Assembly: GCA_963758195.1 (NCBI GenBank)
Contig: CAVWUH010000002.1
Location: 4,427,958-4,491,957, forward strand
Length of the DNA stretch: 64,000 nucleotides
DNA from: an uncultured Acidobacteriota bacterium
GTDB taxonomy: Bacteria; Acidobacteriota; Thermoanaerobaculia; Gp7-AA8
Direction of reading: 5' to 3'
In this document: in pieces, positions 752-62,159 of the stretch
Layout: every line of letters begins with the position of its first letter
How positions within the stretch are numbered: position 1 is the stretch's first letter
The notes under the pieces: generated by a model
What the model was told of the DNA's origin: nothing
Databases searched by the model: none
The model's input: only the letters and a program-made list of their open reading frames with translations
Made by a program: the position numbers and the translations under genes

Positions 752-838
752 CAGATCGCGGTTTGCAGATCGCAGATCGCAGGAAAGGCGGCTCTCGCCG
801 CACGTCGCAGCGATCCGCGATCTGCATTCTGCGATCTC
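752..838. repeat. oligomer-armed hairpin (CAGATCG-type units)
   Basis: The left arm cagatcgcggtttgcagatcgcagatcgcagg faces the complementary right arm gcgatccgcgatctgcattctgcgatctc. Confidence 0.8.
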
Positions 839-851
839 ATCCGGCGAGGGA

Positions 852-924
852 GTTTCACGCGGAGACGCGGAGAACGCGGAGAGAGTTCGTCTCGACTCCG
901 CGCCCTCCGCGTCTCCGCGTGAAC
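852..924. repeat. family A palindromic repeat, copy A1
   Basis: GTTTCACGCGGAGACGCGGAGAACGCGGAGAG...CTCCGCGCCCTCCGCGTCTCCGCGTGAAC. The same termini recur at 38654, 40928 and 53113. Confidence 0.85.
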
Positions 925-939
925 CCGAATCTCTGCCGC

Positions 940-1476
940 CTACATGCTCTTGGTGCAGGTCTCCTCGTCCATCTTCATCCACTTCCCGGCCTGCTCCACC
1001 CAGCCGGCGTGCACGAACTCGTCGGCGTTCTTTTTCGTGAACGTATCGCGCGCCTTCATCGTCATCGGGCCCATGTGCCACGAACCATCCCAGGTGAGCG
1101 TGTTGTCCTTCCAGCCGTCGGATGTCGCCGAGCTATGGCCGCCCATGTTGTCGACCGAGCTCATGACGTATTTCTTCTGCTCGGCGTCGTAGCCCATGAA
1201 GCCGCCGACGCTGAACGGCATCGGATTCTTGTCGCTCGACATCTCGGCGTAGGTGAAGGCGAGCCAGTAATCGCCCATCTGCCAGCCGGATGAAACCGTC
1301 CCCATCGTCGGATGCTCGGGGCTCATCGGGTTGGCGAACGCCGTCCCCTTGCAGCCCCACGAACCGGTGAGGTAATCGAGTTGCCGCAGCTTCGGATCGG
1401 GCTTCATCTCCGGGGCCTGGGCGAAGAGGGACGTGGCGACGAACACGAGGATCAGGGCGAGAGTGAATCTGCGCAT
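940..1476 (-). CDS. secreted protein, DUF1579-like
   Basis: From ORF 940..1491, with the start moved to ATG 1476 (GGAGG 7 nt upstream). Signal peptide MRRFTLALILVFVATSLFAQA. Family assignment is from memory of the sequence pattern. Confidence 0.6.
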   Translation of the reverse strand: MRRFTLALILVFVATSLFAQAPEMKPDPKLRQLDYLTGSWGCKGTAFANPMSPEHPTMGTVSSGWQMGDYWLAFTYAEMSSDKNPMPFSVGGFMGYDAEQKKYVMSSVDNMGGHSSATSDGWKDNTLTWDGSWHMGPMTMKARDTFTKKNADEFVHAGWVEQAGKWMKMDEETCTKSM

Positions 1477-1666
1477 GGGTACTTCCTCCATTCCGTTTGG
1501 ATGATTCTACGGCAGGTTCCGGCGATCGGATGGGTCGGGCGGCTCGGCAATAAACCTGCAGGGTCCGGCGTTGGGCAGGACTCAAAGGTTGACAGGATGC
1601 GATGGCGTCCGTATGTTGACGCCCTCGCCGGGCACCCACCGCCGGCATCGATCGTTGAAGCAACGC

Positions 1667-1741
1667 GGGCCCGTAGCTCAGTGGTAGAGCACCTGGCTTT
1701 TAACCAGAGGGTCGTAGGTTCGATCCCTACCGGGCTCACCA
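1667..1741 (+). tRNA. tRNA-Lys (anticodon TTT)
   Basis: Cloverleaf read by hand: acceptor GGGCCCG/CGGGCTC, D-arm GCTC-AGTGGTA-GAGC, anticodon loop CTTTTAA, T-arm GTAGG-TTCGATC-CCTAC, encoded CCA. Confidence 0.9.
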
Positions 1742-1751
1742 TCGCCTGCGG

Positions 1752-1814
1752 GATTGAGGATGCAGGATTGAGGATTCGCCGCCCCCGGCATTCTCAATTC
1801 TCAATTCTCAATTC
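1752..1814. repeat. oligomer-armed hairpin (GATTGAG units)
   Basis: gattgaggatgcaggattgaggatt ... attctcaattctcaattctcaattc, lying between the two tRNAs. Confidence 0.8.
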
Positions 1815-1820
1815 AAGTCA

Positions 1821-1896
1821 GTCCCCATCGTCTAGAGGCCTAGGACAGCGCCCTTTCACGGCGCCAACACGGGTTCGAATCCCGTTGGGGACGCCA
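1821..1896 (+). tRNA. tRNA-Glu (anticodon TTC)
   Basis: GTCCCCATCGTCTAGAGGCCTAGGAC..., anticodon stem GCGCC/GGCGC with loop CTTTCAC, T-arm ACGGG-TTCGAAT-CCCGT, encoded CCA. It closely resembles canonical bacterial tRNA-Glu. Confidence 0.9.
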
Positions 1897-1963
1897 ATGT
1901 TTGCTTCCGCCCACGCCCGAGGATGTCAAACGATGATCTCGTTGTCGTCGGCTCGGCGTCCGA

Positions 1964-2773: not shown

Positions 2774-2914
2774 ACCCCGGCCTCCCGCACCCGATCGGCG
2801 AGGACCGAAATGTACTCAAGCCGCTGCGCCATCCGGCGGACGAAGCTTCGGTGGAGATAAAGCCGCGGGAGGTAGTTCCCGCGCATAGCGTCGAGCGTCA
2901 GCGGTGCAGGCGGC

Positions 2915-3618: not shown

Positions 3619-3812
3619 CACGATTCCCACCCGAGGAACGCGCGTTCCTCTTCTGCCGATGCCCGTTCCATCCGCTCGAGGTTATGTTGCACGAGGTCAT
3701 TTGTCGCCGCCGCGGTCTCGCGCCAGGAATTCAATGCAAGCAAGACGAAGTCACTGTTTGCCGCGAGCTGCGAGCGAATGTGCTCCGGAATCGGGACGAC
3801 CTCGGTCGACAT
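3618..3812 (-). CDS. small hypothetical protein (64 aa)
   Basis: ATG 3812 (MSTEVVPIPEHIRSQLAANS...). The stop overlaps the next start. The IS end lies 7 bp upstream of the start codon. Confidence 0.45.
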   Translation of the reverse strand: MSTEVVPIPEHIRSQLAANSDFVLLALNSWRETAAATNDLVQHNLERMERASAEEERAFLGWES

Positions 3813-3818: not shown

Positions 3819-5540
3819 TCTAGCCCGCATTTCTCACCGATGTCGTCCCGGGGAGTCGTAGGGCCACGAAATCGTGATTGAAGTGAAAGAACCTGCGAAA
3901 ATCGTTGCGGACGCGATTGATGTCGCCTGGCAACGAGGTCGGCAAGGACAAGGCCCGCAAGTTATTGCACGTATGGGGTTCACCAGGCGATGTCTGAGCC
4001 GGTCGCGAACGCACCGATTCTGACGAACACCGGAGGGACGGTCATCGGTGGGTGTGGAGTAGTGCTCTACGGCGATGCGTGAGCGAGATTGCAGCAGACG
4101 CGAGCGAACAGGGACGCCAGCGGATAACTGCTCGAGAGCGACACTCGGATTTTCCGGGTCGTCACTCGGATGCGCGCTCCGATCTTGAACAACTTCAGAC
4201 GGATCGTGTCGCACTGGGCGTTGGCCAGATCCGTGTCCTTGAGCCCCAGTCTCCGCAACGCGCTCATCAGCAGATAGGCCACCGACGAGAAGAAAGGCGC
4301 AACTGGTTCGCGCGCATCGTTGCAGCCGACGTGCGATCGGAGAAAAGGAAGCTCTTCTGCTCTTTGATCCGATTCTCCATGTCGCCTCGGCCGCAGTACT
4401 CATCCTCATACAAGGTCTGAGCGGAATACGCGTCGATCGACAGTGATGTGACGACGAAGCGCGCGTTCGGCTTGTCGATCAGATACTCAGCTTTTGCCAC
4501 TACACGTCGAACACGGCTCCAGCTATCGAGGGTTTCGTACAGCATGTCCTTGTAGTCACGCCAAGGCGCACCGGTGCGCTCGGACTCGTGGCGAGTCTGC
4601 TTCATCTCATCCTCGATCATCCGCTCCAGGCGCTTGTTGCGCGCCAGTCCGAGCACGTAGTCCACCTCGTGCTTTTCGCACCAGGTCATGATGTCGTCAC
4701 GAGAGAATGCCGAGTCCGCGCGAATCGTGATCTCTACGTCCGGCCAGCTCTGACGAATCTGCGACACGATTCGTTCCAGTTCTTCGACCGTTCCCTCCGC
4801 CGGGCCGATGCTTGCCTGTCGCAACCGAGCGCACAGAAGAAACTCGCCGCAGAAGACATAAAGCGGGAGATAACAGTACGAACCGTAGTAGCCGTGGAAG
4901 AACCGGCCTTCCTGACCACCGTGAATTTCGTCGTCGGTCGTATCCAGATCGAGAACGATCCGTTTCGGCGGCTCCGCGTGGGCCTTCAGAAAGGCGTTGA
5001 CGAAGAAACGATCGATCGCCGCTTCGTCGTAGACGATCTTCTTGTACCGGTCCTTGCCTTGGTCATCTTCGCTCAGCTCCAACCGGTTCAGCGTGCTCTT
5101 GCCCGCCAGAGCTTGCGTCGGATCACTCTTCTCCACCAGCGTTGCGATCAAGGGATCGTGACGCAGCTGATCGTGATCGTTCAGATCCTCGTAGCCGAGC
5201 GCCAGTCCCATGACCCGTTGGCGGATCAGCGAGCTCACCGAGTGCTCCACCATCACCGCACTCCGATAGTCCCGAAAACAAGCCGCGAATTCGCCGAGCA
5301 ACCCCGTGCGCCGGTCGACCTCTCGCAGTAGGAGTCCGCCCCCGTCCGAGCTCAGTTGTCCGCCATCAAACCTGGCCACTACTTCGCGTCGGCCCACCCC
5401 TTGGAAACTCACCTCAATCTCGTTACACTCTGTCTGTCGCACGCCGCCGCCCCCTCTGCTTTTCAAGTTGTTCTAGACAATCAACTTAATAGCATGGTGC
5501 GGCGGCTTTTTCATTACCTCCGTGAGAAATGCGGGCTAGA
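3819..5540. mobile_element. IS1380-family-like insertion sequence
   Basis: 19-bp perfect terminal inverted repeats: tctagcccgcatttctcac at 3819-3837 and its reverse complement at 5522-5540. They enclose a DDE transposase gene. The element is 1722 bp. No flanking target duplication was found. Confidence 0.8.
4067..5466 (-). pseudogene. IS1380/IS4-like DDE transposase, frameshifted
   Basis: ORF 4267..5466 carries ..LGYEDLNDHDQLRHDP.. and GRFFHGYYGSYCYLPLYVF. The family-typical C-terminus (SVAYLLMSALRRLGLKDTDLANAQCDTIRLKLFKIGARIRV..) is in ORF 4067..4282 in another frame. The frames meet in a T/C-rich run near 4283-4300. Confidence 0.8.
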
Positions 5541-14980: not shown

Positions 14981-15048
14981 CATCGGTTGGCAGTGATCGG
15001 TTCTCTGTGAGGTGTCGCGCCGAAGCCCAGACAACTGACAACCGAATG
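14981..15048. repeat. oligomer-armed hairpin (GTTGTC/GACAAC units)
   Basis: catcggttggcagtgatcggttctctg ... cagacaactgacaaccgaatg. It is related to 59408-59479 in the opposite orientation and starts 3 nt after the stop of the 662-aa gene. Confidence 0.75.
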
Positions 15049-15050
15049 CC

Positions 15051-24786: not shown

Positions 24787-24830
24787 GGATCTTGCGTGCC
24801 GACGTTCGGAGCGCACGCATCCTGCCTGCC

Positions 24831-24984
24831 GGACCGCCGGCGTCTCGCCGGCTGGAGTGAGGGCGTCCCGCGCCCTCACCCTCTCGCCATCGCGATTACT
24901 GAACATCAGCACGCAACTCGTCCTTGGCACCCAGGGCGGCGGCGCGGGACGCCGCCGCACCAGCCGGCGAGACGCCGGCGGTCC
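24831..24984. repeat. family B palindromic repeat, copy B1 (with enlarged centre)
   Basis: GGACCGCCGGCGTCTCGCCGGCTGG ... CCAGCCGGCGAGACGCCGGCGGTCC, between convergent genes. Confidence 0.85.
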
Positions 24985-25001
24985 GGAAGCTTGCGCCGCA
25001 C

Positions 25002-26690: not shown

Positions 26691-26717
26691 GCGCGGACAC
26701 TCAATGAAGTCAAAAAA

Positions 26718-26748
26718 GGCCGGAGATCCCTCCGGCCTTTTTGTTTTT
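26718..26748 (+). terminator. intrinsic-terminator-like hairpin with U-tract (A-tract on the other side)
   Basis: aaaaaa GGCCGGAG atcc CTCCGGCC tttttgttttt. Stems at 26718-26725 and 26730-37. It lies about 30 nt upstream of the RBS of the 26779 gene. Confidence 0.6.
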
Positions 26749-28054: not shown

Positions 28055-28117
28055 CATTCGGAGGCGCGGAGAGAAAGTATTCTGACGACCTCCGCATCTC
28101 CGCGTCTCCGCGTGAAC
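28055..28117. repeat. family A repeat, degenerate copy A2
   Basis: ..ttcggaggcgcggagag...cctccgcatctccgcgtctccgcgtgaac. The left terminus is eroded. Confidence 0.65.
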
Positions 28118-28220
28118 CATCCTGTCGCCTCGCCGCAGGGGCGTGAATCACGACGACGTCATCCCATTTTTAAAGGCGGTGTGCCGGAGAGACCCGCTGC
28201 GCTCGTGTGCGACGAGACGA

Positions 28221-29347: not shown

Positions 29348-29414
29348 GGTTCACGCCGAGGCGCGGAGAGCGCGAAGGGTTTTTAACTTCGCGTGCTCCG
29401 CGTCTCCGCGTGAC
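29348..29414. repeat. family A repeat, copy A3
   Basis: ggttcacgccgaggcgcggagag...gctccgcgtctccgcgtgac. It contains the stop codon of the NRPS-like gene. Confidence 0.75.
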
Positions 29415-32145
29415 GATTCTCTCCTCGCGCCTTTTCCAGCGCCCCGCGCATCGCCTTCGCCAGCGAATCGACGTCGCCGCGGATCACGGTGTGGTGTTCG
29501 CCTTTCACGGGGAGGATGTCGAGGTCGTCGCAGAGGGCGCGCCAGCCGACGTCGGGGGTGGTGCCGTCGAAGCCCCAGCCGTGGCGAGCGAGGAAGAGGG
29601 TGACGCGGCCGGCGTAGGGGAGGAGCGCGTCGCGGCGTTGAATCGAAGCGAAATTGCGATTCATTTCCTGCATGTCGATCGGCGCGGTGCGGCGCACGAG
29701 TCCGAGGGCGCGGCGCGCGATGGCGCGGGCGTAGCGCGGGGCCTGGCTCATCGGCTTCTCGCGCAGGAGGGAGAGGTGCTTGAGATAGCTCTTCCACGAC
29801 GGCGTGCGTTGCGATGTCGCGGCGGCGTCGATGAGTCCGACGAACGCGACTTCGTGTCCGGCACGCGAGAGGAGCCGCGCGACGTCGAAGGCGATCACTC
29901 CTCCCGCCGAGTACCCGGCGACGTAGTACGGCCCCTCGGGCTGCACTTCGCGAATGGCGTCGACGTAACAGGCGGCGAGCGCGGCGAAGGTTTTCGGGAA
30001 GGCTTCGGCGGAGAAGCCATGGTGCGTGAGTCCGTAGAACGTCTGCGCGGACCCGAGGAGCGCGGCGAGCTCGCGGAAGATCATCACGCTGCCGCCTTTG
30101 CCGGAAACGCAGAAGAGGGGCGGGAGCGTGCCGTCGCCGCGTTGGACGAGGATCGCGGTGCGCTCGATGTCCGCTTCTCCGCGCGCGCGAAGGTAGTCGG
30201 CCATCTTGGCGACGGTGTTCAGCTCGAGGAGCAGCGAGAGCGGCATCGCGCGGCCGAGGATGCGATGGACTTCGGTGACCAGATGCGCGGCGACGACGGA
30301 TTCGCCTCCGAGATCGTCGAAGAAGTCGTCGTCGATGCAGACGTTGGTGCCGGTGATGCGCGACCAGATCTCGAGGAGCGCTCGTTCGAGATCGTCCGCG
30401 CCGTCATCGGTGCGCGCTTCGATGACATCGACGCGGAGCGTCAGCGCGTTGCGATCGACCTTGCCCGCGCCGGTCATCGGCATCGCCTCGAGGGCGTGGA
30501 GCTGCGAGGGGATCATCGACGAAGGAATCTTGTCGCGGAGTGCGGCGCGAAGCTCGCGCGGGAGGAAGGGCTTGCCCGCGGGCATCACGACGTAGGCGAC
30601 GAGCCGAAGCTCGCCCTGCGCGTCGGGCTTGCCGACGACGACCGCTTCGCGAACGCCGGCGAAGGTGACGAGCGCGGTTTCGATCTCCAGCGGATCGATG
30701 CGGCGGCCGTGGATCTTGAGGCGCGAGTCGGTGCGGCCGATGAAGTAGTAGAGGCCATCGGCGTCGCGCTTGACGAGATCGCCGGTGAAGGTCGTGCGCT
30801 GTTCACCGGCGCCGTTGCTGTCGAGCGCGAACTTCTGCGCGGTGAGCTCCGGAGCGTTCCAGTAGCCGTCGGCGACGTGCGCGCTGCGCACGACCAGCTC
30901 GCCGGGCTCGCCGTCCGGAACGTCGTTGCCTTCGTCGTCGATGAGGCGGACGTGCACGCCGGGGCGCGGGCGTCCGATCGGAACGAGCGGTCCGGGGATC
31001 GGTGTGTCGTGCGTGATGCTCATGTGCATCACCTGTCCCGCTTCGGTGGAGGCGAATCCGCGCTCGAAGGTGCAGGTTCGCGGAAAGCGCGCCTTGAACG
31101 CGTCGATGTCGGCGACGGTGACGACGTCGGCGCCGATGCGGAGCTTGCGGACGCTGGAGAGGTCGAGATCGTCGGGCGCGCTCTGCATGAAGCGGCGGAA
31201 GAGCGCGGGCGTGAGGGTGAGGATGGAGACGCGCTCGCGGCGGATGAACGCCGCCAGTGCATCGAGCGTTTCGTTGCGGGCGTCGAAGGCGCAGAGCGTC
31301 GCGCCGTTGAGGAGCGAGCCGAGGATCTCGTAGGTCGCGCGGGCGAATCCGGGGAGCGCGGTGTAGCTCACGCGCTCGCCGGCGGAACGGCCGTTGACGG
31401 CGGCCTGCGAGACGACGCGTTCGACGAACGAGCGCTGCCGGCTGGCGACCGCTTTCGGCGAGCCGGTGCTGCCGGAGGTGTAGGTGATTTGTACCAACTC
31501 GTTTGGGCAGCTCGCAGCTGGCAGCTGGCAGCTCGCAGGAGATTCGCTGAGAGCTGAAGCCGAGATCGCAGCTGGCAGCTGGCAGCTCGCAGGAGATCCG
31601 CTGCGAGCTGAAGCCGAGATCGCAGATCGCAGATCGCGGTTCGCAGGGACCCTGCTGAGAGCTGCGAGCTGCGAGCTGAGAGCTGAATCGGGGATCGGGA
31701 TTCGTTGCAGTGCAGCAGTTGCTGTCGGGGGACGGTCGATGTCGACGAGCGCGAGTGTCGCGCCCGACGCGGCGAGGATCATGGCGATGCGCTCGTCGGG
31801 ATCGGAGGCGTCGATAACGACGAAGAAGTGACCGGCTTTGATCGCGCCGAGGACAGCGGCGACGAGGGCGACGTTGTCGCGGGTGGCGATGGCGATCGGA
31901 TGTGCTACCGGCGCCTTCGCTGCGAGAAGATCGACGGCGATCGCATCAGACCAGCGATCGAGATCGGCGTAGCTGTAGCGAGCACGCGGCGACGTCAGCG
32001 CGATGGCATCGGGCGCAGAAGCAACGATGTCGCGAAAGCGCTCGGCGATCGACGTCTCGGCAGTGACCGTCGCCGCGCGCTCCTGCGATCCGCGATCTGC
32101 GATCTGCGATCTGGTTTTCGCGATCTGCGATCCGGTTACTGCCAT
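29383..32145 (-). CDS. single-module NRPS-like enzyme (adenylation - carrier protein - thioesterase)
   Basis: A-domain cores ITYTSGSTGSPKAV, FTGDLV, GRTDSRLKIHGRRIDPLEIE and GAGKVDR. Carrier motif DDLGGES. Thioesterase motif GYSAGG. No condensation domain. Start ATG 32145, 10 nt inside the permease gene. Confidence 0.85.
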   Translation of the reverse strand: MAVTGSQIAKTRSQIADRGSQERAATVTAETSIAERFRDIVASAPDAIALTSPRARYSYADLDRWSDAIAVDLLAAKAPVAHPIAIATRDNVALVAAVLGAIKAGHFFVVIDASDPDERIAMILAASGATLALVDIDRPPTATAALQRIPIPDSALSSQLAALSRVPANRDLRSAISASARSGSPASCQLPAAISASALSESPASCQLPAASCPNELVQITYTSGSTGSPKAVASRQRSFVERVVSQAAVNGRSAGERVSYTALPGFARATYEILGSLLNGATLCAFDARNETLDALAAFIRRERVSILTLTPALFRRFMQSAPDDLDLSSVRKLRIGADVVTVADIDAFKARFPRTCTFERGFASTEAGQVMHMSITHDTPIPGPLVPIGRPRPGVHVRLIDDEGNDVPDGEPGELVVRSAHVADGYWNAPELTAQKFALDSNGAGEQRTTFTGDLVKRDADGLYYFIGRTDSRLKIHGRRIDPLEIETALVTFAGVREAVVVGKPDAQGELRLVAYVVMPAGKPFLPRELRAALRDKIPSSMIPSQLHALEAMPMTGAGKVDRNALTLRVDVIEARTDDGADDLERALLEIWSRITGTNVCIDDDFFDDLGGESVVAAHLVTEVHRILGRAMPLSLLLELNTVAKMADYLRARGEADIERTAILVQRGDGTLPPLFCVSGKGGSVMIFRELAALLGSAQTFYGLTHHGFSAEAFPKTFAALAACYVDAIREVQPEGPYYVAGYSAGGVIAFDVARLLSRAGHEVAFVGLIDAAATSQRTPSWKSYLKHLSLLREKPMSQAPRYARAIARRALGLVRRTAPIDMQEMNRNFASIQRRDALLPYAGRVTLFLARHGWGFDGTTPDVGWRALCDDLDILPVKGEHHTVIRGDVDSLAKAMRGALEKARGENRHAETRSTRS
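31507..31690. repeat. oligomer-armed hairpin repeat inside coding sequence, with a 54-bp tandem duplication
   Basis: CAGCTGG/CAGCTCG/CAGATCG units. Units 31514-31567 and 31568-31621 differ at 2 of 54 positions. The complementary arm is cctgctgagagctgcgagctgcgagctgagagctg. Confidence 0.85.
32083..32135. repeat. oligomer repeat (GCGATCT units) at the 5' end of the NRPS-like gene
   Basis: ctgcgatccgcgatctgcgatctgcgatctggttttcgcgatctgcgatccgg, translated as GSQIAKTRSQIADRGSQ. Confidence 0.8.
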
Positions 32146-33667: not shown

Positions 33668-34782
33668 CGTTTTTCTGCGGGGGCTTTCGCGGCGTTGACG
33701 AATGTCGGATTCCACCATTTCGACGTTGCGATCGGGCCGTCGAGATAGCGTTGCTCGAGTGCCCAGTCGAGAAAGGGCTGCACCGCGGTCGCGTCGATGC
33801 GGCCGTCGCCCGAGATGGGGATCCAGCACGCTCGCCGGATGACCTCGGGTGGAAGTTTCGTGTAGCGGCTGAGAATCGCGACGTTGCGATCGGTTTTTCC
33901 TTCGCCGTAGCGGCGGGCGCCGTGGAGATAAGCGCGCATGAAGCGCTTGCCGAGCTCGGGATCGTCGTGCAGTAAACGCTGTCCGAAGATGAGCACGGAG
34001 TTCTGATGGCCGGGCTGCACTTCGCCGGCGGTGGCGACGATCTTCGCCCAGCCTTCTCCGATTGCGCTGCTGAGATTCGGCTCCGTCGTGAGGCGCACTG
34101 CGTCGAGCTTGTCGCGCGAAGAAGCGGCGGTGCCGTTCGGCAACTGCAGGACGACGACGTCCGCGGGCCTGAGTCCGCGCCGCGCGAGGAGGCGCATGGT
34201 GAGGTACTCCATGAGACCGCCGCGAATCAGCGCGATGCGCTCGCCGCGAAGACTGCCCCCCGCGGCTTCGATCCGCTTCGCCGTTTCGATCGGCGCGATG
34301 AAGGCATCGGATGTACAGCCGCGAGGATCGGCGTGACCTTTGTCGGCGACGATCTGCAGCGGAACGCCCTTGATGATCAGATTGAAGATGCCGGAGCGAA
34401 GTCCGGCCGAGAGCACGTCGATCTTTCCGGCGGCAGCGGCAGCGACGGCGGAGTTGGAATCGAGCGAGACGAATTCGGCGTCGATCCCTTCCTGCGCGAA
34501 GAACCCTTCGTCCTTCGCGATCATGATCGGCGCGTAGGTGAGGGTGGGGTTGACGTTGAGACGCACTTTCGCGGCGCTCACGGGTTGTTCGTGGCGGGAG
34601 CAGGAGAGAAACAAGAAGAGAGCGACCAAGCCAAGAACAGTCCCCTCTCCCCGCGTGAGCGGGGAGAGGGTTAGGGTGAGGAGTCGTTCTTTGCGCGAGG
34701 CAGAGCCCCTCACCCTAACCCTCTCCCCACCGCGATGAGGCTGCGGCGGGGAGAGGGGACTGAGAACGTGCTTGATCGTCAT
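33664..34782 (-). CDS. ABC substrate-binding lipoprotein (NMT1/SsuA-like) with repeat-derived insertion in the signal peptide
   Basis: This is the last 372 codons of track ORF 33664..36438. ATG 34782 overlaps the receptor stop (TGATG). The N-terminus is MTIKHV, then a 43-aa repeat-encoded segment, then LGLVALFLFLSC. Confidence 0.75.
   Translation of the reverse strand: MTIKHVLSPLSPPQPHRGGERVRVRGSASRKERLLTLTLSPLTRGEGTVLGLVALFLFLSCSRHEQPVSAAKVRLNVNPTLTYAPIMIAKDEGFFAQEGIDAEFVSLDSNSAVAAAAAGKIDVLSAGLRSGIFNLIIKGVPLQIVADKGHADPRGCTSDAFIAPIETAKRIEAAGGSLRGERIALIRGGLMEYLTMRLLARRGLRPADVVVLQLPNGTAASSRDKLDAVRLTTEPNLSSAIGEGWAKIVATAGEVQPGHQNSVLIFGQRLLHDDPELGKRFMRAYLHGARRYGEGKTDRNVAILSRYTKLPPEVIRRACWIPISGDGRIDATAVQPFLDWALEQRYLDGPIATSKWWNPTFVNAAKAPAEKR
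34639..34762. repeat. family D repeat, copy D1
   Basis: CAGTCCCCTCTCCCC...GGGGAGAGGGTTAGGGTGAGGGG...CCCCTCACCCTAACCCTCTCCCC...GGGGAGAGGGGACTG. The first 58 nt (minus sense) are identical to copy D2. It is flanked by AGAAC at 34634-34638 and 34763-34767. Confidence 0.85.
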
Positions 34783-36920: not shown

Positions 36921-37080
36921 GGAACGGTAGACAGGGGACGCTTGCACAAGTGGACCGCCGCCGTCTCGGCGGCTGGGGCGGCGCCGTCCCGGCGCCCGCG
37001 CGCGAGCGGCGAGACGCCGCTCGCCCAGCCGGCGGGACGCCGGCGGTCCGCTTGTGCAAGCGTCCCCTGTCCACCGTTCC
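36921..37080. repeat. family B repeat, copy B2, nested in a 30-bp outer inverted repeat
   Basis: Core at 36952-37049. The outer arms ggaacggtagacaggggacgcttgcacaag (36921-36950) and 37051-37080 pair with one mismatch. Confidence 0.85.
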
Positions 37081-38653: not shown

Positions 38654-38734
38654 ATTTCACGCGGAGGCGCGGAGGACGCGGAGAAAAAGATCATCACAGA
38701 TTTCTCTCCGTGTCTCCGCGTCTCCGCGTGAAAC
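38654..38734. repeat. family A repeat, copy A4
   Basis: ATTTCACGCGGAGGCGCGGAGGACGCGGAGA...CTCCGTGTCTCCGCGTCTCCGCGTGAAAC. Confidence 0.85.
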
Positions 38735-38749: not shown

Positions 38750-39154
38750 TCACTTGCCCGGCATTCGCACGAGCCTTTCAAACAACCCCTCCAGCGCGAC
38801 CTTCGGATCCGCATGCACTCCGGAATGGACGTCCGAGGTTTGGATGACCGTGCTGCGTGGCGCGACGAGCCAATGGAAGCGGGCGCGTTGCGGGAGACTT
38901 CCGATCGAGCCGGCTTCGCCGCCGCCCGCACAGATCGTGGGAATCGAATCGAGATAGCTCTGGACCACCGCCGTATCGATCGTCGGCGCGAGCGCTTGCA
39001 GACGCGCGTGATCGAGCTCGATGCGCGACTCGAGAAACCCGGCCGTCGAGCAGAACAGGATCACGCCCGCGTTCAGGAACTCGCCGCGATCCACTCGCGG
39101 CACGACGCGCACGACGGCGTAATCAAACACGAAGCGTTCGTGCACGAACGGCAT
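38750..39154 (-). CDS. DUF3037 family protein
   Basis: FDYAVVRVVPRVDRGEFLNAGVILF is the family-typical N-terminus (from memory). The gene overlaps the upstream kinase gene. Confidence 0.7.
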   Translation of the reverse strand: MPFVHERFVFDYAVVRVVPRVDRGEFLNAGVILFCSTAGFLESRIELDHARLQALAPTIDTAVVQSYLDSIPTICAGGGEAGSIGSLPQRARFHWLVAPRSTVIQTSDVHSGVHADPKVALEGLFERLVRMPGK

Positions 39155-39911
39155 CCTCCATCCATTCCCGCGGCGCGGTGAGTCGCCGCGTCAGGTAATC
39201 ACGATACGCGGCGCGGTGCTCTTCGACACTCGCGAAGCGAGGCTCGTCGTCCAGCCACGATTCGGGGATGAGCGCGATCACGGCGGCGATGACCTCGGGC
39301 GTCAGCGTCGCGCTCAGCTCGGCGTCGATCTCGCGAATCTCGTCCGCCCATCCGAGGAGCACGTGCTCGGCGATGCGCGGAAATGGCGCGCGGCTCTTCT
39401 CGAGATAGCCGTCCCAGTTGTGATGAAAGACGAGCGTCGCGCCGTGATCGATCATCCAGAGCTTGCGATGCCACACGAGCAGGTTCGTGTTCTTCACAGT
39501 GCGATCGACATTCGTCACCAGCGCATCGAACCAGACGATCGCCGAGGCCAGCCGCGATCGGTTCTCGATCGGCACGGCGACGATCGGATCGAACGTGATC
39601 GAGCCGGGGAGATAGTCGAGGGCGATGTTGAGCCCTTCGCTCTTCTGCAGCAACTCCTGAATTTCCGGATCGCGCTCGGTCTTGGCCATGCGCGGATCGA
39701 GCTCGGCGAACACGATCTCCGGCACCAGCAAACCGAGCGCCCGCGCGATCTCACCCGACACCAGCTCCGCGACCAGCGCCCTGGCCCCCTGTCCCGCTCC
39801 GCGAAATTTCACGACGTACGTGCCGTCGTCATCCCCTTCCACGATCGCCGGAAGCGACCCACCTTCACGGAGGGGCATGACGTACTCGGTGGCGGTGATG
39901 GTGCGAAGCAT
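39123..39911 (-). CDS. HipA-like kinase family protein
   Basis: ATG 39911. MLRTITATEYVMPLREGGSLPAIVEGDDDGTYVVKFRGAGQGARALVAELVSGEIARALGL.. matches the HipA-family kinases that accompany DUF3037 (from memory). Confidence 0.65.
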   Translation of the reverse strand: MLRTITATEYVMPLREGGSLPAIVEGDDDGTYVVKFRGAGQGARALVAELVSGEIARALGLLVPEIVFAELDPRMAKTERDPEIQELLQKSEGLNIALDYLPGSITFDPIVAVPIENRSRLASAIVWFDALVTNVDRTVKNTNLLVWHRKLWMIDHGATLVFHHNWDGYLEKSRAPFPRIAEHVLLGWADEIREIDAELSATLTPEVIAAVIALIPESWLDDEPRFASVEEHRAAYRDYLTRRLTAPREWMEDAVRARTLRV

Positions 39912-39963
39912 CGCGCGAGGATCATATTTGACGCGGATGACGGGAACCCGCAAACTTCGTGAC

Positions 39964-40341
39964 GTGACGACGAAACTGGATCTGCCCGACGATCTCATGG
40001 AGGAGATTCGGCTCCGAGCCTCACGAGAAGAACGCGAGCTCGACGAGACGATCGCTGAGCTGCTTCGCGCAGGACTCGCAGTGTCCTCCGTGCGTCCGTC
40101 GACGAGGGTGCAGGCGGATTCTTCGATGCTGGAAGAGCGTCAGCGGATCGCGGAAAAGTTTCTTGGCGGCGAGTGGGGTGTCGAGCTCACTCACCATTCT
40201 CTCGCTGATCGATGCGGACCGCCGGCGTCCTCGCCGGCTGGCGGGGTGCCGTCTCGGCGCCCCGAAAGGGTGGCGGCGCGGGACGCCGCCACTCCAGCCG
40301 GCAAGACGCCAGCGGTCCGCCGAACCACTCGCGCGCGTTGA
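39964..40341 (+). CDS. ribbon-helix-helix antitoxin-like protein with repeat-encoded tail
   Basis: VTTKLDLPDDLMEEIRLRASREERELDETIAELLRAGL is antitoxin-like. Start is GTG 39964 or ATG 39937. The last ~40 codons run through repeat B3. No toxin gene follows. Confidence 0.4.
   Translation: MTTKLDLPDDLMEEIRLRASREERELDETIAELLRAGLAVSSVRPSTRVQADSSMLEERQRIAEKFLGGEWGVELTHHSLADRCGPPASSPAGGVPSRRPERVAARDAATPAGKTPAVRRTTRAR
40216..40318. repeat. family B repeat, copy B3
   Basis: GGACCGCCGGCGTCCTCGCCGGCTGG...CCAGCCGGCAAGACGCCAGCGGTCC. Confidence 0.85.
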
Positions 40342-40927: not shown

Positions 40928-41006
40928 GTTTCACGCGGAGACGCGGGGGACGCGGAGAGTCGCAGGTAACCCCCACTCTCCGTGCTTCCGCGTCTCCGCG
41001 TGAAAC
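40928..41006. repeat. family A repeat, copy A5
   Basis: GTTTCACGCGGAGACGCGGGGGACGCGGAGAG...CTCCGTGCTTCCGCGTCTCCGCGTGAAAC. Confidence 0.85.
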
Positions 41007-44179: not shown

Positions 44180-44995
44180 TCAGAACGGATGCTCGAAGCT
44201 CAGATAGAGGAAAACCGCCTTGTCGTCGCTGGTCATGGGAAAGGCGATGCCGGGGACGATCTGCAGGTCGCGCGGAAGGTTGTAGGACCAGCGAATGCCG
44301 GGACTGACGATGAATTCCGAATCGTCTCCCGCTGATTCCGTGGTGCGCGTCCAGACGGTCTCGACGAGCGCGTTGAATCGATGAGTCGTGAGCCAGACGA
44401 AGCTCGTGCCCGCGGTGATGGAGTGAGAGTCCGCGGCCGGCGTGAAGGTCGCGCCGAGGTTCCAGTGCGCGACGATCGACGGCGTGAGCACGGTGCTGAC
44501 CGGAAGCATGACCTGGATGCCGGCGTCGCCGCTGCCGAGTCCGCGGCGCTCGCTGCCGGTCGGCACGAGCAATGTGATACGAGGCGAGACCGCGACGCGT
44601 GCGTCGGCATCGCCGATCCACTGATAGCGATAGTTCAGCGCGATGTCACCGATGCCGCGTTCCCCATTCACGCTGGCGATGGGAATCGTGTAGCTCAGCT
44701 GGTGATGAAGATTCGGAGCGGGCCACTCCTGTGTGAAGGAGTAGGCCCAGTCGCTGCCGCGCGTTCCGTGCGAGAAGGTCGAAATGTGCTGCACGACGTG
44801 CGGGCCCTGGTTGTATGCCTCTTCGATGAGGAAACTGTTGTCCTGAATGGGCGCGTCGTCCGGCTGCCCGTTCGTCTGGGCGTCGGTCTGGGCGAGGACC
44901 GGAAGTGCGGCGAGAAGAACCAGGAGACAGACCGCAGACCGCAGATCGCGGATCGCAGAAGACACCGCGAGCGGGAAACGACTCGGCACAACCAT
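44180..44995 (-). CDS. outer-membrane beta-barrel protein (transporter/MetA-like family)
   Basis: ATG 44995, a signal peptide, alternating beta-strand pattern, and C-terminal ..YLSFEHPF. Confidence 0.6.
   Translation of the reverse strand: MVVPSRFPLAVSSAIRDLRSAVCLLVLLAALPVLAQTDAQTNGQPDDAPIQDNSFLIEEAYNQGPHVVQHISTFSHGTRGSDWAYSFTQEWPAPNLHHQLSYTIPIASVNGERGIGDIALNYRYQWIGDADARVAVSPRITLLVPTGSERRGLGSGDAGIQVMLPVSTVLTPSIVAHWNLGATFTPAADSHSITAGTSFVWLTTHRFNALVETVWTRTTESAGDDSEFIVSPGIRWSYNLPRDLQIVPGIAFPMTSDDKAVFLYLSFEHPF
44928..44957. repeat. oligomer repeat (CAGACCG/CAGATCG units) inside the signal-peptide coding region
   Basis: cagaccgcagaccgcagatcgcggatcgcag encodes ..SSAIRDLRSAVC.. on the minus strand. 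Confidence 0.7.
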
Positions 44996-47363: not shown

Positions 47364-47457
47364 GGACCGCTGCCGTCTCGGCGGCTGGGGCGGCGTCGTC
47401 TCGACGCCCGCAAGCGGCGGGACGCCGCTCGCCCAGCCGGCGAGACGCCGGCGGTCC
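47364..47457. repeat. family B repeat, copy B4
   Basis: GGACCGCTGCCGTCTCGGCGGCTGGGG...CCCAGCCGGCGAGACGCCGGCGGTCC. Confidence 0.85.
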
Positions 47458-47499
47458 TCAGCGTTTTCCGTTGACGAGGCGATATCATTCGGACGTCTC

Positions 47500-48908: not shown

Positions 48909-49007
48909 GGACCGCCGCCGTCCCGGCGGCTGGGGCGGCGGCGTCCCGCCGCCCGCCCGACGAGCGGCGAGACGCCGCTCGTCCAGCCGGCGAGACGCCG
49001 GCGGTCC
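48909..49007. repeat. family B repeat, copy B5
   Basis: GGACCGCCGCCGTCCCGGCGGCTGGGG...GTCCAGCCGGCGAGACGCCGGCGGTCC, between convergent genes. Confidence 0.85.
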
Positions 49008-53112: not shown

Positions 53113-53191
53113 ATTTCACGCGGAGGCGCGGAGGGCGCGGAGAGAAATGTCCGGCGATTCCTCCCGCGCCCTCCGCGTCTCCGCGTGAAAC
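53113..53191. repeat. family A repeat, copy A6
   Basis: ATTTCACGCGGAGGCGCGGAGGGCGCGGAGAG...CTCCCGCGCCCTCCGCGTCTCCGCGTGAAAC. Confidence 0.85.
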
Positions 53192-54454: not shown

Positions 54455-54552
54455 CAGTAGGCAGTCGGCAGTACGCTTCGCTTGCAGTAGGCAGGAGCGG
54501 GAGCGCCGGTTGGTTTCGCTCCTGCCAACCGCCAACCGCCAACTGCCAACTG
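54455..54552. repeat. oligomer-armed hairpin (GGCAGT / CCAAC units)
   Basis: cagtaggcagtcggcagta...gcagtaggcaggagcg / cgctcctgccaaccgccaaccgccaactgccaactg. Confidence 0.75.
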
Positions 54553-54611
54553 ATTCAGCACACCGGTTACAATCCCTCGATCCGCTCCATCCACTCATCC
54601 GAGGTGAATCT

Positions 54612-55762: not shown

Positions 55763-55900
55763 CAGTCCCCTCTCCCCGCCGCAGCCTCATCGCGGTGGGG
55801 AGAGGGTTAGGGTGAGGGGCGATTTCTCGCGCAAGGGACGACCCCTCACCCTAGCCCTCTCCCCGTTCGCGATGAGGCTGCGAACGGGGAGAGGGGACTG
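55763..55900. repeat. family D repeat, copy D2
   Basis: It has the same 58-nt start as D1 in the opposite orientation, and ends ..GGGGAGAGGGGACTG. Confidence 0.85.
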
Positions 55901-56052
55901 AAAACGACAATGCGCATTTTTGGTTGGGGCCTCGCCGCGCTACGCGGTGACTGCCGTCCTCGTTCCTGGCGCGCGCGGCCGGCCGAGGGCGGCCAGCGCT
56001 ACACAGAAGCGCACTTCGCTTCGCTCAGAATGAGGTGGGCAATCGCGTGACG

Positions 56053-57855: not shown

Positions 57856-57969
57856 GAATTGAGGATTGAGGATTGAGAATTGAGAATCGGAGGACGGGCA
57901 TCTTCTTCGCGTCTTCGCGTCTTCGCGTGAGACCGTTTCTCACGCGAAGCCGCGAAGAACGCGAAGGAC
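57856..57969. repeat. composite repeat: GATTGAG-unit arm (57856-57890) plus a CTTCGCGT-unit hairpin (57902-57969)
   Basis: gaattgaggattgaggattgagaattgagaat; cttcttcgcgtcttcgcgtcttcgcgtgagaccgtttctcacgcgaagccgcgaagaacgcgaagg. Confidence 0.8.
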
Positions 57970-59392: not shown

Positions 59393-59407
59393 GGTGAGCT
59401 CCCGCTT

Positions 59408-59479
59408 GGTTGTCAGTTGTCGGTTGTCGGTTGTCTGCGAGACAGCGCATAACCTCACAGACAACTGACAACCGACAAC
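59408..59479. repeat. oligomer-armed hairpin (GTTGTC units)
   Basis: ggttgtcagttgtcggttgtcggttgtctg ... cagacaactgacaaccgacaac, between boxC and boxB. Confidence 0.8.
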
Positions 59480-59485
59480 GCCTCT

Positions 59486-61132
59486 CTAGATCCTTTCCCA
59501 ATTGAACTTCGGTTTCGTCCCGCTGCCGAACAGCTTCAGCGCGCCGTTCTCGCCGACCGCGTTCGGCCGGATGAAGATCCAGTTCTGCCAGGCCGAGAGG
59601 CGGCCGAAGATTTTCGTCGCCAGCGTCTCGGCGCCGCCGAAGCGGAGGCTCGCTTCCATTCCGGTGAGCGCGTCGGGGGAGAGGCTGGCGCGCTCTTCGA
59701 TCGCCAGGCGCAGCTCGTCCTCCCAATCCAGTTCATCGGGCGCGAACGTGATGAGCCCCGCTTCGAGCGCTTCGTTCGCGTTAAGGAGTTGCTCGAGTTG
59801 CTCGCGCGCGATCTCCGGCGCCGCGCCGAAGCGCGTCTGCAGCCGCGTCGCGTTGTTCGCCATCGCGTACGGTCCGTAACCTGCACTGAGCGTAGCCGAA
59901 GTGTTCATCGCGCTCAGCGCGAGACGCGGCCCGTTGTCCGCCGCCAGCATGTACGCGCGATCGGCGGCCAGCGCGAGCTCGAGGAGCGTGCCGGCGAAGG
60001 CCGAGCCTTCGTCGATCATCGCGTAGATGCTGCGCGACGAAACTTCGAGGCGCGAGAACGTGCGGCGGATGAAATTGATCGTCTCGCGCACGAACCAGTG
60101 CTTCGCGTGCTCGTCGAGCGCGCGATCGATGCGCAGGACGTTGTCGATTACGCCGCGTGTCTTCACGATCCAGATCCCGCCCTCGCGCACGTTCGTGCGC
60201 AGATGCAGGATCGCGTCGTCGAGCTCGCGCGCCATCGCCAGCGGCCACCAGCTCGCACCCGCGGCCACGATCGCGTCGATCGTGGTTGCCTCGTCGGCGG
60301 ACGGCGCGTTCACCGTGATCGTCACGATGCGCGTCTCGCTGTCGATGGCGACGTCGACGTGGTCGTAGTGCAGTCCCTTCTCATCGACCGTGCGATGAAC
60401 CGGCGTCAGCGCGATGCCCTTCGCATTCGCGGGACGATCGGTCTGGGCCGCGAGTGCCTGCGCGCGCTCGTTCACCTTTTCCGCGAAGAGCCGCGGCGGC
60501 ACGACGTCATCGACGAGTCCCATCGCTTTCGCTTTCGCGCCACCGAATCCCTCGGCGGTCGTGCAGAAGACGTCCGCGAGATCGCGCCGCACGTGGCGCT
60601 TGTCGACGAGCCGCGTGAGTCCGCCCGTTCCGGGCAGCACCGCCAGCAGCGGCACCTCGGGGAAGCTGACCGTGCTCGAGCGATCGTCGACGAGCACGAT
60701 CTCGTCGCAAGCGAGCGCCATCTCGTACCCGCCCCCCGCCGCCGTGCCGTTCACCGCCGCGAGGAACTTGAGTCCCGAGTGCGCGCTCGAATCCTCGATG
60801 CCGTTCCGCGTCTCGTTCGTGAACTTGCAGAAGTTCACCTTCGTCGCGTGACTGGCCTTGCCGAGCATGTAAATGTTCGCGCCGGCGCAGAACATCCGCT
60901 CCTTCGCGCTGGCGAGAACCACCGCGCCGACTTCCGGATGCTCGAAGCGAATCCGATCGAGCGCATCGCGCAACTCGATGTCGACGCCGAGGTCGTAGGA
61001 ATTGAGCTTCAACTTGTAGCCGGGATCGATCCCGGCATCCTCGGCGACGTCGAGACTCAACGTGGCGACGGGTCCGTCGAAGGTGAGACGCCAGTGCTGG
61101 TACGTCTCGGGCTCACGGTCGAACGTGATCAT
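59486..61132 (-). CDS. boxC: 2,3-epoxybenzoyl-CoA dihydrolase (benzoyl-CoA-dihydrodiol lyase)
   Basis: ATG 61132. MITFDREPETYQHWRLTFDGPVATLSLDV.., a crotonase-like N-terminal half, about 548 aa, adjacent to boxB. Confidence 0.85.
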   Translation of the reverse strand: MITFDREPETYQHWRLTFDGPVATLSLDVAEDAGIDPGYKLKLNSYDLGVDIELRDALDRIRFEHPEVGAVVLASAKERMFCAGANIYMLGKASHATKVNFCKFTNETRNGIEDSSAHSGLKFLAAVNGTAAGGGYEMALACDEIVLVDDRSSTVSFPEVPLLAVLPGTGGLTRLVDKRHVRRDLADVFCTTAEGFGGAKAKAMGLVDDVVPPRLFAEKVNERAQALAAQTDRPANAKGIALTPVHRTVDEKGLHYDHVDVAIDSETRIVTITVNAPSADEATTIDAIVAAGASWWPLAMARELDDAILHLRTNVREGGIWIVKTRGVIDNVLRIDRALDEHAKHWFVRETINFIRRTFSRLEVSSRSIYAMIDEGSAFAGTLLELALAADRAYMLAADNGPRLALSAMNTSATLSAGYGPYAMANNATRLQTRFGAAPEIAREQLEQLLNANEALEAGLITFAPDELDWEDELRLAIEERASLSPDALTGMEASLRFGGAETLATKIFGRLSAWQNWIFIRPNAVGENGALKLFGSGTKPKFNWERI

Positions 61133-61205
61133 GTGAGGCTCTCCTGAGGGTCGGCAATATAGTTCCGAATGCGTGCAACACTCTGAATTATTTCTCGGAG
61201 CGAAG

Positions 61206-62159
61206 TCATCTGGACCGCCGCCGTCTCGGCGGCTGGGCGAGCGGCGTCTCGCCGCTCGCGCGACGGCGGCGGGACGCCGCCGTCCCAGCCGGCGAGGACG
61301 CCGGCGGTCCACCGGATGGCGCTCCCCTGAGTAGTGTCTGCAAAGTCTCCTTCACCGAATGCCCTGTCGTTTCCACGACGAAATCCGCCCGCGAATACAA
61401 CGGCGTCCGCTCCTCGAGAATCCGCCGCAGATCGTCCATCGCCTGCGCCGATCCCGCCATCGGACGGTGATCCCCCTGCGCAATCACGCGCGCCATGTGC
61501 TCCTCGGGCGTCGCGCGGATCCACACCGTGAAGCAGTGCCGCAGCAGCGTCTCGTACGTCGCCGTCTCCGACACGATGCTCCCGCCCGTCGCCACGATGA
61601 AGCGCGGATGCGCTTCGAGCAGTTGCTGCAGCGCCTGCGCTTCGTAGCGTCGATACGCCTGCTGCCCATACAGCTCGAGAATCGAGCCGAGCGACGTGCC
61701 GGAGAGCCGCTCGATCTCGCGATCGAGCTCGAAGAACGGCACGTCCAACTCCCGCGCCAGCGCCGCCCCGATCGTCGTCTTTCCCGCGCCGCGCAGCCCA
61801 ACCAGCGCGATGCGATGCGCGCGCGACACATTCGCATCCGCCGCAAACCGCGACGCCAGCGACGCATGCGCCTCCTTCAACTGCTCCGGCGACAACCGCG
61901 CCAGAAACTGCCGCAACAACGTCATCTCCGCCGACGGACTCTCATCCTCCACGAGCCGCGTCAACGGCAACCCCAACGCCGACGCAATTTGCCGCAGAAT
62001 GAGGATCGAAGCGTTCCCCTTCCCCGACTCGAGCTGCGTGATGTACCGCTCCGAAATCCCCGCATGACTCGCGAGGAGCTTGCGACTCATCCCGCGCCGA
62101 GCGCGTTCACCACGAACGCGCTCGCCAAAGGCGCGGAGGAAGTCTTCGTCGGGGGTCAC
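61206..62159 (-). CDS. boxR: XRE-HTH plus shikimate-kinase-like transcriptional regulator (BoxR/BzdR type)
   Basis: HTH ..MSRKLLASHAGISERYITQLESGKGN... P-loop LVGLRGAGKTT. The last ~35 codons lie inside repeat B6. Confidence 0.7.
   Translation of the reverse strand: MTPDEDFLRAFGERVRGERARRGMSRKLLASHAGISERYITQLESGKGNASILILRQIASALGLPLTRLVEDESPSAEMTLLRQFLARLSPEQLKEAHASLASRFAADANVSRAHRIALVGLRGAGKTTIGAALARELDVPFFELDREIERLSGTSLGSILELYGQQAYRRYEAQALQQLLEAHPRFIVATGGSIVSETATYETLLRHCFTVWIRATPEEHMARVIAQGDHRPMAGSAQAMDDLRRILEERTPLYSRADFVVETTGHSVKETLQTLLRGAPSGGPPASSPAGTAASRRRRASGETPLAQPPRRRRSR
61212..61310. repeat. family B repeat, copy B6
   Basis: GGACCGCCGCCGTCTCGGCGGCTGGG...CCCAGCCGGCGAGGACGCCGGCGGTCC. 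Confidence 0.85.

Follow-up and report, generated by a model that had tools for sequence, protein, structure and literature searches.

Extragenic palindromes make up a noticeable share of many bacterial genomes, and for most of their families neither the function nor the mode of spread is known. The problem is posed in concentrated form by a stretch of 64,000 nucleotides (the window) from an uncultured Acidobacteriota bacterium of the Thermoanaerobaculia (GenBank assembly GCA_963758195.1, contig CAVWUH010000002.1, positions 4,427,958 to 4,491,957 of the forward strand), in which palindromic repeats and repeat arrays lie at 24 loci: what are these elements, how did they come there, and why do they stand where they do? 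Four unrelated kinds of palindromic repeat coexist in the window, mostly just after genes, and are designated families A, B and D and the heptamer-based class H. With a probability of roughly 0.55, we regard them as non-autonomous, horizontally spread repeats that are tolerated, or perhaps co-opted, at gene 3' ends, the window representing a lineage-specific build-up of the four kinds.

The initial annotation had described 24 loci of palindromic repeats, and at each of them the sequence was confirmed. Motifs were counted over the whole window with up to 3 mismatches allowed and the expectation taken from dinucleotide shuffles; the family A arm was found 12 times (0.05 expected), the family B unit 10 times (0.00 expected) and the family D core 4 times (0.00 expected). 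When 18 elements were folded, each against 200 shuffles, 17 gave z-scores of -4.2 to -16.7, the exception being the weak hairpin at 14981 (z -1.5). When the whole window was folded in sliding 140-nt segments, 14 of the listed elements accounted for 16 of the 23 most extreme segments. As to the short-unit hairpins of the initial annotation, 7-mer-armed hairpins do exist, but the array at 32083 forms no local hairpin and those at 44928 and 57856 are solitary. Its label "REP-like" was broadly right, the elements being extragenic palindromes similar to the repetitive extragenic palindromic (REP) sequences. An Rfam scan of the window returned two tRNAs and nothing else, no known RNA family falling on any element. 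The G+C content of the window is 59-68%, its sequence was matched only in DNA runs of soil metagenomes, and the best relatives of its histidine kinase are all from metagenome-assembled genomes of Thermoanaerobaculia (Acidobacteriota), at only 39-45% identity.

The positions of the elements were related to a gene map built from third-position G+C and checked with Pfam. On this map, elements occupy 7 of the 9 convergent gaps, 10 of the 20 tandem gaps (plus B6, which lies on the end of an open reading frame, ORF) and 3 of the 9 divergent gaps, and at 15 of the 24 loci the nearest gene 3' end is no more than about 20 nt away. Within tandem gaps the element is 0-15 nt from the upstream stop codon or overlaps it, even where the gap is 161-532 nt long, and at 29348 and 61212 the last codons of the upstream ORFs run through the element. 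The placement next to stop codons is therefore real, with exceptions in divergent gaps, where B3 (40216) and A6 (53113) are full copies, in the spacer between two tRNA genes (H2) and inside a coding region (H4). One stop codon named in support of it, at 748, is doubtful, since it comes from a 62-codon ORF with a weak coding signal.

Palindromic elements and repeat arrays of the window (positions are those of the window; z, fold z-score; NRPS, nonribosomal peptide synthetase)
Element	Position	Composition	Setting	z
H1	752..838	GCAGATC heptamer-armed hairpin, fold -58.2 kcal/mol		-8.3
A1	852..925	TTCAC + (GCGGAGNN)3 arms	end 14 nt from stop of DUF1579 gene	-9.0
H2	1747..1816 (+)	GATTGAG-armed hairpin	between tRNA-Lys and tRNA-Glu	-4.5
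H3	14981..15050	weak degenerate hairpin, GTTGGCAG / GACAAC units	convergent gap	-1.5
B1	24826..24989	family B, long centre (~50 nt)	convergent gap	
A2	28055..28118	family A, left arm degenerate	convergent gap	-4.3
A3	29348..29416	family A	overlaps stop of NRPS-like ORF	-7.1
H4	31507..31686	composite of GCAGCTS and GCAGATC heptamer arrays, 54-nt tandem duplication	inside AMP-binding domain	
H5	32083..32142	GCGATCT array	overlaps stop of upstream permease gene	
D1	34639..34766	inverted BoxC/TMECO-type triplex pair	15 nt past stop of TonB-receptor gene	-9.8
B2	36921..37080	family B core (36952-37049) within outer palindrome	4 nt past stop of FGE-sulfatase gene	
A4	38654..38734	family A	convergent gap, 18 and 15 nt from the stops	-11.3
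B3	40216..40318	family B	divergent gap	-8.0
A5	40928..41006	family A	convergent gap, 14 and 11 nt from the stops	-10.7
H6	44928..44960	solitary CAGACCG/CAGATCG array, no partner	divergent gap	
B4	47364..47458	family B	14 nt past stop of acyl-CoA dehydrogenase gene, next start 228 nt on	-7.1
B5	48909..49007	family B	convergent gap, 13 and 6 nt from the stops	-8.1
A6	53113..53191	family A	divergent gap between DUF11 and NHL genes	-10.3
H7	54455..54553	GGCAGTW / TTGGCRG heptamer-armed hairpin	3 nt past a stop	-4.2
D2	55763..55901	inverted BoxC/TMECO-type pair	convergent gap	-16.7
H8	57856..57887	solitary GAATTGA/GGATTGA array	beside A7	
A7	57902..57969	GCGAAG variant of family A, inside-out (TCAC on loop side)	abuts stop codon	-8.0
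H9	59408..59480	GGTTGTC-armed hairpin	5 nt past stop of enoyl-CoA hydratase gene, next start 454 nt on	-7.9
B6	61212..61311	family B	read through by last ~35 codons of shikimate-kinase ORF	-8.2

Judged by its sequence, family D is of a kind already known, an inverted pair of BoxC/TMECO triplex motifs. The core GGGGAGAGGGTTAGGGTGAGG and the upstream CCCTCTCCCC correspond to the type A triplex motif of BoxC, also named PIT or TMECO, which the D modules carry in the form CCCTCTCCC-loop-GGGAGAGGG-TTA-GGGTGAGG. Set against the published TMECO pattern, CCCTCNCCC - N3-6 - GGGNGAGGG - N3 - GGGNGAGGG (PMC4666352), 4 of 4 D modules show all three 9-nt blocks and the 3-nt second loop, the first loop being 10-23 nt long as compared with the published 3-6. 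Both D loci are intergenic and each is an inverted pair, in agreement with the multi-copy, intergenic BoxC elements, which are very widely distributed, form inverted pairs at five E. coli loci, were never found there beside transposases and have been linked to genome rearrangement (PMC4666352). The E. coli pairs, however, combine a type A with a type B motif, whereas the members of a D pair are both type A-like (with TTA or CTA), and the D pair makes up one hairpin of 123-136 nt. The published survey listed Proteobacteria, whereas the host of the window is an acidobacterium; the exact D core was detected at more than 120 genome loci, from Enterobacteria, Pseudomonas and Rhizobia to Planctomycetes, Chloroflexota, bacteria of the Candidate Phyla Radiation (CPR) and an archaeon, and also in 76 viral contigs. 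Some viral or proviral contigs of IMG/VR (L355, L365 and L408), which may contain host DNA, carry both A and D modules, one of them with eight listed A-arm positions in 15 kb (scan count 9).

Family B is a new family resembling the bacterial interspersed mosaic elements (BIME). An element is built from four REP-like stem-loops of 25 nt; the first two share one orientation, the last two have the opposite one, and the TCY / RGA loops are conserved. The 64 kb contain 12 units of 25 nt, 10 of which fit the pattern at 3 mismatches or fewer, and their stems show compensatory changes. Two models of pairing were compared on an alignment of nine copies, of which the window supplied five and other Acidobacteriota four. 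With small hairpins, 93.4% of the cells were paired and 7 pairs had changed on both sides, a result reached by 0 of 500 shuffles; with one long hairpin, the outer arms did no better than shuffles (62 of 500), the pairing breaking at the variable S positions. These positions covary within each arm, being CG in five copies and GC in four, and in the inner units the stem sequence varies between copies while self-complementarity is kept. Since the covariation fits the small hairpins and not the long one, the conserved object is the 25-nt REP-like unit. It was found in Acidobacteriota, Planctomycetota, Alphaproteobacteria and Armatimonadetes, and whole four-unit elements, 75-82% identical, occur in other Thermoanaerobaculia.

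The REP, BIME and REPIN elements of E. coli and Pseudomonas, which are mobilised by REP-associated tyrosine transposases (RAYT), are likewise short, GC-rich imperfect palindromes in inverted groups, multi-copy and extragenic, mostly 3' of genes, and make no target-site duplication; of the four kinds, family B comes closest to this architecture. A defining feature of REPs, however, is that the hairpin foot carries a conserved tetranucleotide, GTAG or CGTC (PMC3733652). The B units start with GGAC and end with GTCC, CGTC being present only beside the loop; lacking such a foot, they fall outside the tagged REP super-families (PMC3733652). Family B further differs from REP and BIME in its fixed four-unit array, in its conserved loops, in the presence of the same unit in four phyla and in that no RAYT was found.

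At B2 the loop of a unique outer palindrome of 31 bp (36921-36951 / 37050-37080) is occupied by the family B core. In a contig of a related strain (run X2) the outer hairpin is present with a short loop and the core is absent, a presence/absence polymorphism. Insertion into pre-existing hairpins was considered as a general rule and rejected, an outer palindrome being present at B2 only. In a metagenome-assembled genome of the Planctomycetota, the B unit forms part of a multi-copy element of about 1.05 kb (L320 3757-4800; also L333, L342 and L343), the copies of which are 84-88% identical; this element carries a 357-aa ORF of unknown function.

Mainly for families B and D, it is conceivable that REPIN- or BIME-type elements are moved by a Y1 (HUH) transposase whose gene lies elsewhere in the genome, the candidates being RAYTs, TIRYTs (subclass 2.1) and class 3 TnpA-Y1 enzymes such as occur in Acidobacteria and Planctomycetes; this we consider unlikely. 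The inverted grouping of the imperfectly palindromic 25-nt B units is that of BIMEs and REPINs, and the lack of target-site duplications is as expected for Y1 enzymes. The flanks of TIRYT genes share GGGG[AT][CG]A[CG], to which GGGGAGAG of family D conforms, and the Acidobacteria possess a TIRYT group of their own together with class 3 enzymes associated with "atypical secondary structures" (PMC3733652, PMC6006769). The enzyme itself, however, was not encountered. A search with E. coli RayT gave nothing in the window, one weak match, not beside a module, in about 380 module-bearing loci of up to 8 kb, and nothing in the viral loci. The absence of the GTAG or CGTC foot from the B units also argues against this origin, as does the fact that no transposase was ever found beside BoxC sites in E. 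coli (PMC4666352); CGTC-type REPs likewise have no dedicated transposase (PMC3733652).

A role of the elements in DNA structure was considered as well. They would form cruciform, triplex or G-quadruplex sites at which nucleoid proteins or gyrase bind, replication pauses or recombination is promoted, as has been suggested for BIMEs and TMECO. The arms are near-perfect at the DNA level and show no strand bias, the D core has four G-runs, and the B units, each a small palindrome, are suited to cruciform extrusion. The triplex, however, was undetected in vivo or in a duplex context (PMC4666352), the variation of the inner B stems is an argument against sequence-specific duplex binding, and the spacing of 0-15 nt from stop codons is left unexplained. 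We rate such a role as very unlikely.

Family A is a new variant, and the finding that its arms belong to GxxExxY gene cassettes, for which the evidence comes from outside the window, is the most interesting lead of this analysis. The arm is made up of [T/C]TCAC and then about three units, GCGGAG or, in A7, GCGAAG, to each of which 2-3 nt are added, thus forming tandem 8-9-mers; in A3 the innermost unit is GCGAAG/CTTCGC, a compensatory change. The loops in the window are 5-22 nt long and unrelated between copies. An A-arm 19-mer, TTCACGCGGAGRCGCGGAG, was detected at more than 118 genome loci in at least 10 phyla, including Acidobacteriota, Sphingomonadales and other Proteobacteria, Gemmatimonadota, Verrucomicrobiota, Planctomycetota, Armatimonadota, Nitrospirota, Chlorobiota and Sumerlaeota, and the arm also in 70 viral contigs. 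The TCAC prefix was found again at arrays that had not been chosen for TCAC.

Within 2.9 Mb of fetched loci, all five GxxExxY genes (TIGR04256 / PF13366; PD-(D/E)XK type) are bracketed on both sides by inverted A arms. The same architecture is present in plasmid records of Sphingomonas (GCGAAG units), Bacteroides (TTCAC + CACAGAGGA units) and Bernardetia. Metagenome contigs were scanned with a profile of five GxxExxY sequences, a more diverse profile of nine proteins being too divergent for a locus scan, and 70 loci had flanks long enough to be judged. An inverted repeat with a score of at least 14 was present at 49 of the 70, and at least two octamer units of the A type on each side at 56 (about 80%); the purine arm was upstream in 47 of these 56 and reversed in 9. 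The last unit lies at a median of 9 nt from the start codon. The pattern [T/C]TCAC + tandem (RCRNAG + 2-3 nt) was thus found in A1-A7, in 56 of the 70 metagenome loci, and in the five genome and three plasmid loci. In the orthologous fabD-fabG intergenic space of sphingomonad-like genomes, GxxExxY is likewise located between octamer arms (L083 3304-3745; L065, L090 and L491; at least 11 metagenome loci). The units of this cassette vary by genome (GCGGAG, GCGAAG, GCAAAG or GCAGAG) and both arms co-vary, indicating that the pairing is maintained.

The window copies of family A agree with these hairpin-bounded cassettes in the TTCAC prefix, in the GCGGAG/GCGAAG units and in a flank, GTGAA-CC-R-AAT, common to window copies and sphingomonad cassettes. 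They differ in that the cassettes have the gene in the loop, whereas the window copies have short loops and no gene. No GxxExxY homologue was detected in the whole window, and the window elements therefore represent the gene-less form. PF13366 is listed as of unknown function, and its phylogeny shows "multiple transfers" (PMC3424549). A sequence search of GxxExxY against solved structures gave no match, and at the Sphingomonas cassette locus the RNA contigs covered only the neighbouring conserved genes. The association of A arms with GxxExxY was not found described in the searchable literature, and exact-string literature searches for families A and B returned no papers.

One model, tentative and on the improbable side, starts from a selfish cassette of pan-bacterial distribution, a hairpin with octamer arms whose loop carries a minimal PD-(D/E)XK nuclease, GxxExxY; the A hairpins would be its empty sites, its remnants or miniature forms derived from it. 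By recognising or cutting the hairpin or cruciform that the arms form, the nuclease would drive a homing-like or recombinational spread of cassette and arms from genome to genome, and the heptamer-armed hairpins could be structures of this kind with other cargo. If true, an orphan nuclease family gains a role, and a class of repeats would be mobilised by neither a DDE nor a Y1 transposase. The intervening sequences of 23S rRNA with an ORF in their stem-loop are a loose analogue of such cassettes. The attC sites of integrons were rejected as a counterpart, because family A begins with GTTTCAC and ends with GTGAAAC, in the wrong order relative to RYYYAAC ... GTTRRRY, and because the neighbouring genes point towards each other or in mixed directions and an integrase is lacking.

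The elements of class H form a new set of hairpins resembling the short tandemly repeated repetitive (STRR) sequences. Heptameric STRRs are classically known from cyanobacteria. The H units GCAGATC, GCAGCTS, GATTGAG, GGTTGTC and GGCAGTT recur at several window loci and at other loci of Acidobacteriota, and Tandem Repeats Finder gave a period of 7 with 2.7-8.3 copies at all H loci. The heptamers GGGAATC of Xanthomonas and GGGGAYT of Nostoc are comparable, being intergenic tandem arrays of 3-5 copies that are sometimes inverted between convergent genes (PMC4692102), and GATTGGG of Nostoc is one base off the unit GATTGAG. In contrast to these known repeats, most H arrays are paired as hairpins with short unique loops, several units coexist, and G-runs for a quadruplex are lacking.

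Soil runs contain the H arms joined by other short loops at other places, with word depth rising several-fold over the arms, so that these too are multi-copy families with conserved arms and free loops. The arms are met in these runs with a wide variety of flanks and loops. At H5, the array at 32083-32113 pairs with an inverted GCAGATC array at 31616-31646, 434 nt away, the two bracketing the 5' part of the NRPS-like ORF. Three soil-metagenome runs contain both arms joined by a 17-nt loop, presumably a plain hairpin at other loci. That ORF (29383-32526, minus strand; NRPS-like, with AMP-binding, PP-binding and thioesterase domains) also contains H4, an in-frame insertion just before the YTSGSTG motif, which adds about 45-50 residues relative to solved adenylation domains and includes a 54-nt (18-codon) tandem duplication of 2.8 copies. 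The Rickettsia palindromic elements (RPE) and other in-gene miniature inverted-repeat transposable elements (MITE) are similarly palindromic in-frame insertions into a surface loop with the frame kept, but H4 differs in its heptamer arrays and 18-codon duplication, and has neither a target-site duplication nor a related autonomous element. In H2, all left units are GGATTGA and all right-arm complements GAATTGA, the variants being homogenised within an arm; its + strand folds better than the other (-32.7 as against -20.2 kcal/mol) owing to G-U pairs. The best match to a sigma-70-like promoter in the window, TTGACA-17-TATGTT at 1589-1617 (+), is located just upstream of tRNA-Lys, H2 and tRNA-Glu, and H2 would thus be transcribed inside a tRNA precursor.

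These features could also be accounted for by local origin without mobility, the arrays arising by polymerase slippage and the hairpins by intrastrand template switching (quasi-palindrome correction), mainly for class H and for the arm lengths of family A. Heptameric repeats are over-represented in many bacteria, slippage having been proposed as the cause, and occur occasionally as inverted pairs between convergent genes in Xanthomonas and Nostoc (PMC4692102). The homogenised variants of H2, the tandem duplication of H4, the solitary arrays at 44928 and 57856, and loops that are unique to each copy while the arms are alike all agree with this origin. Independent local births are nevertheless improbable where the same units and the TTCAC prefix recur at many loci and in many phyla, and neither the flank held in common by window copies and sphingomonad cassettes nor the travelling of the arms with one specific gene family is in accord with them. 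Local origin appears quite unlikely.

Horizontal spread of non-autonomous repeats thus remains our preferred reading. The elements with their structure and placement, the occurrence of their modules in several phyla, the association with GxxExxY, the polymorphism between strains and the in-frame insertion are observed, and what we infer is the mobility, the identity of the mobiliser and selection as the reason for the placement. The repeats would spread and change as DNA. Enzymes with genes outside the window would mobilise or copy them in trans, and slippage within an arm, or copying from one arm to the other, would later alter their shape. They would survive mostly at distances of up to about 15 nt from stop codons, since a very stable hairpin at such a site interferes with no promoter and no coding sequence, and any effect on transcript 3' ends would be secondary and possibly co-opted. 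Other loci of Thermoanaerobaculia rarely carry A, B or D and have no surplus of 3' hairpins, the density thus being specific to the lineage; rich carriers are, for example, Thermoanaerobaculia BP_50, Chersky.9_17 and SMAG_U8922. Turnover is indicated by this density, by the B2 polymorphism, by the in-frame insertion H4 and by the distribution of the modules over many phyla and viral contigs. The copies in divergent gaps, in the tRNA spacer and in an ORF and the multiple transfers of PF13366 also favour this reading.

Several observations weigh against this reading. No mobilising enzyme was found, the window containing neither a GxxExxY gene nor a RAYT; the statement of the initial annotation that a REP-associated transposase is missing from the window holds, but an unrelated transposase of the IS1380 type does occur. 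Target-site duplications in the flanks of the elements were not above chance, and classical DDE-type MITE transposition is therefore not supported. The arms are conserved while the loops are wholly different between copies, which is unusual for copy-and-paste of whole elements. Between themselves the window copies show a likeness of only about 75-85%, not higher than that to copies from other genomes, and this fits constraint or old age as well as mobility. The "viral" contigs of IMG/VR can hold host DNA. Finally, a spacing of 0-15 nt from the stop codon is tighter than tolerance predicts and could reflect a real 3'-end function or targeted insertion.

The transposase mentioned above belongs to a complete insertion sequence (IS) of the IS1380 family at 3819-5540, which the initial annotation does not mention. 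Its 25-nt terminal inverted repeats (TCTAGCCCGCATTTCTCACCG...) enclose a minus-strand ORF, 4267-5466, for a DDE_Tnp_1_4 transposase (E = 3e-125). The IS was rejected as the mobiliser, its 25-nt ends being unrelated to the palindromic families. The MITE class was rejected as well: the arms are inverted, but there is no target-site duplication above chance and the sole IS of the window has unrelated ends.

The spacing leads to the explanation in which the elements are adaptive transcript-end elements, acting as RNA and kept by selection, either as bidirectional terminators independent of a U-tract, as barriers to 3'-5' exonucleases or as both, with the longest stems perhaps serving as RNase III sites. 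This is possible, though it should be held with low confidence. The clustering at gene 3' ends and the filling of most convergent gaps are what it predicts, and in long tandem gaps the element hugs the stop and not the next start. Canonical terminator-like sites are not enriched in the window (15 against 13.9, 19 against 12.6 and 16 against 13.9 expected), indicating that many genes are without another obvious terminator; the only hit linked to an element was a sub-hairpin of D1 with a weak tail. The mean fold downstream of stop codons is -50.0 kcal/mol in the window, compared with -38.4 in mid-gene. Maintained pairing in the fabD-fabG cassettes points the same way, and REPs in general lie downstream of genes, many of them being transcribed (PMC3733652).

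Termination itself, which the initial annotation had proposed together with mRNA stabilisation, is unproven and faces several counter-indications. Intrinsic terminators are similarly GC-rich hairpins a few nt past the stop, often between convergent genes, but they combine 5-12 bp stems with a U-tract, whereas the elements have 20-60 bp stems, belong to repeated families and are not followed by a U-tract in any case. Textbook terminators are present at 26713-26742 (+), with an upstream A-tract, and at 50482-50459 (-), right after the stop of the DUF11 gene; from these sites of stem and T-tract, the organism uses canonical terminators at some genes. The strand that folds better, owing to G-U asymmetry, shows no consistent relation to the direction of the upstream gene in tandem gaps, H2 being an exception. 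At other Thermoanaerobaculia loci the fold past stop codons is no stronger than that in mid-gene (-39.2 as against -40.3 kcal/mol), so that the class does not need 3' hairpins. BoxC/PIT showed neither promoter nor terminator activity in E. coli (PMC4666352), and full copies lie in two divergent promoter gaps and in an ORF.

The window shows four kinds of palindrome together in a poorly studied soil phylum and extends both BoxC/TMECO and a BIME-like family well beyond the Proteobacteria. The link to GxxExxY supplies a candidate partner enzyme and a testable model of how such hairpins arise and move. The elements create spurious ORFs, lengthen real ones (29348 and 61212), insert in frame (31507) and break short-read assemblies, and recognising them improves the annotation of metagenome-assembled genomes. 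Elements of families A and B also flank a gene pair at 38750-39998 on the minus strand, in which a DUF3037 gene overlaps a gene for a HipA_2-type kinase and which possibly represents a two-gene module of the toxin-antitoxin or defence type.

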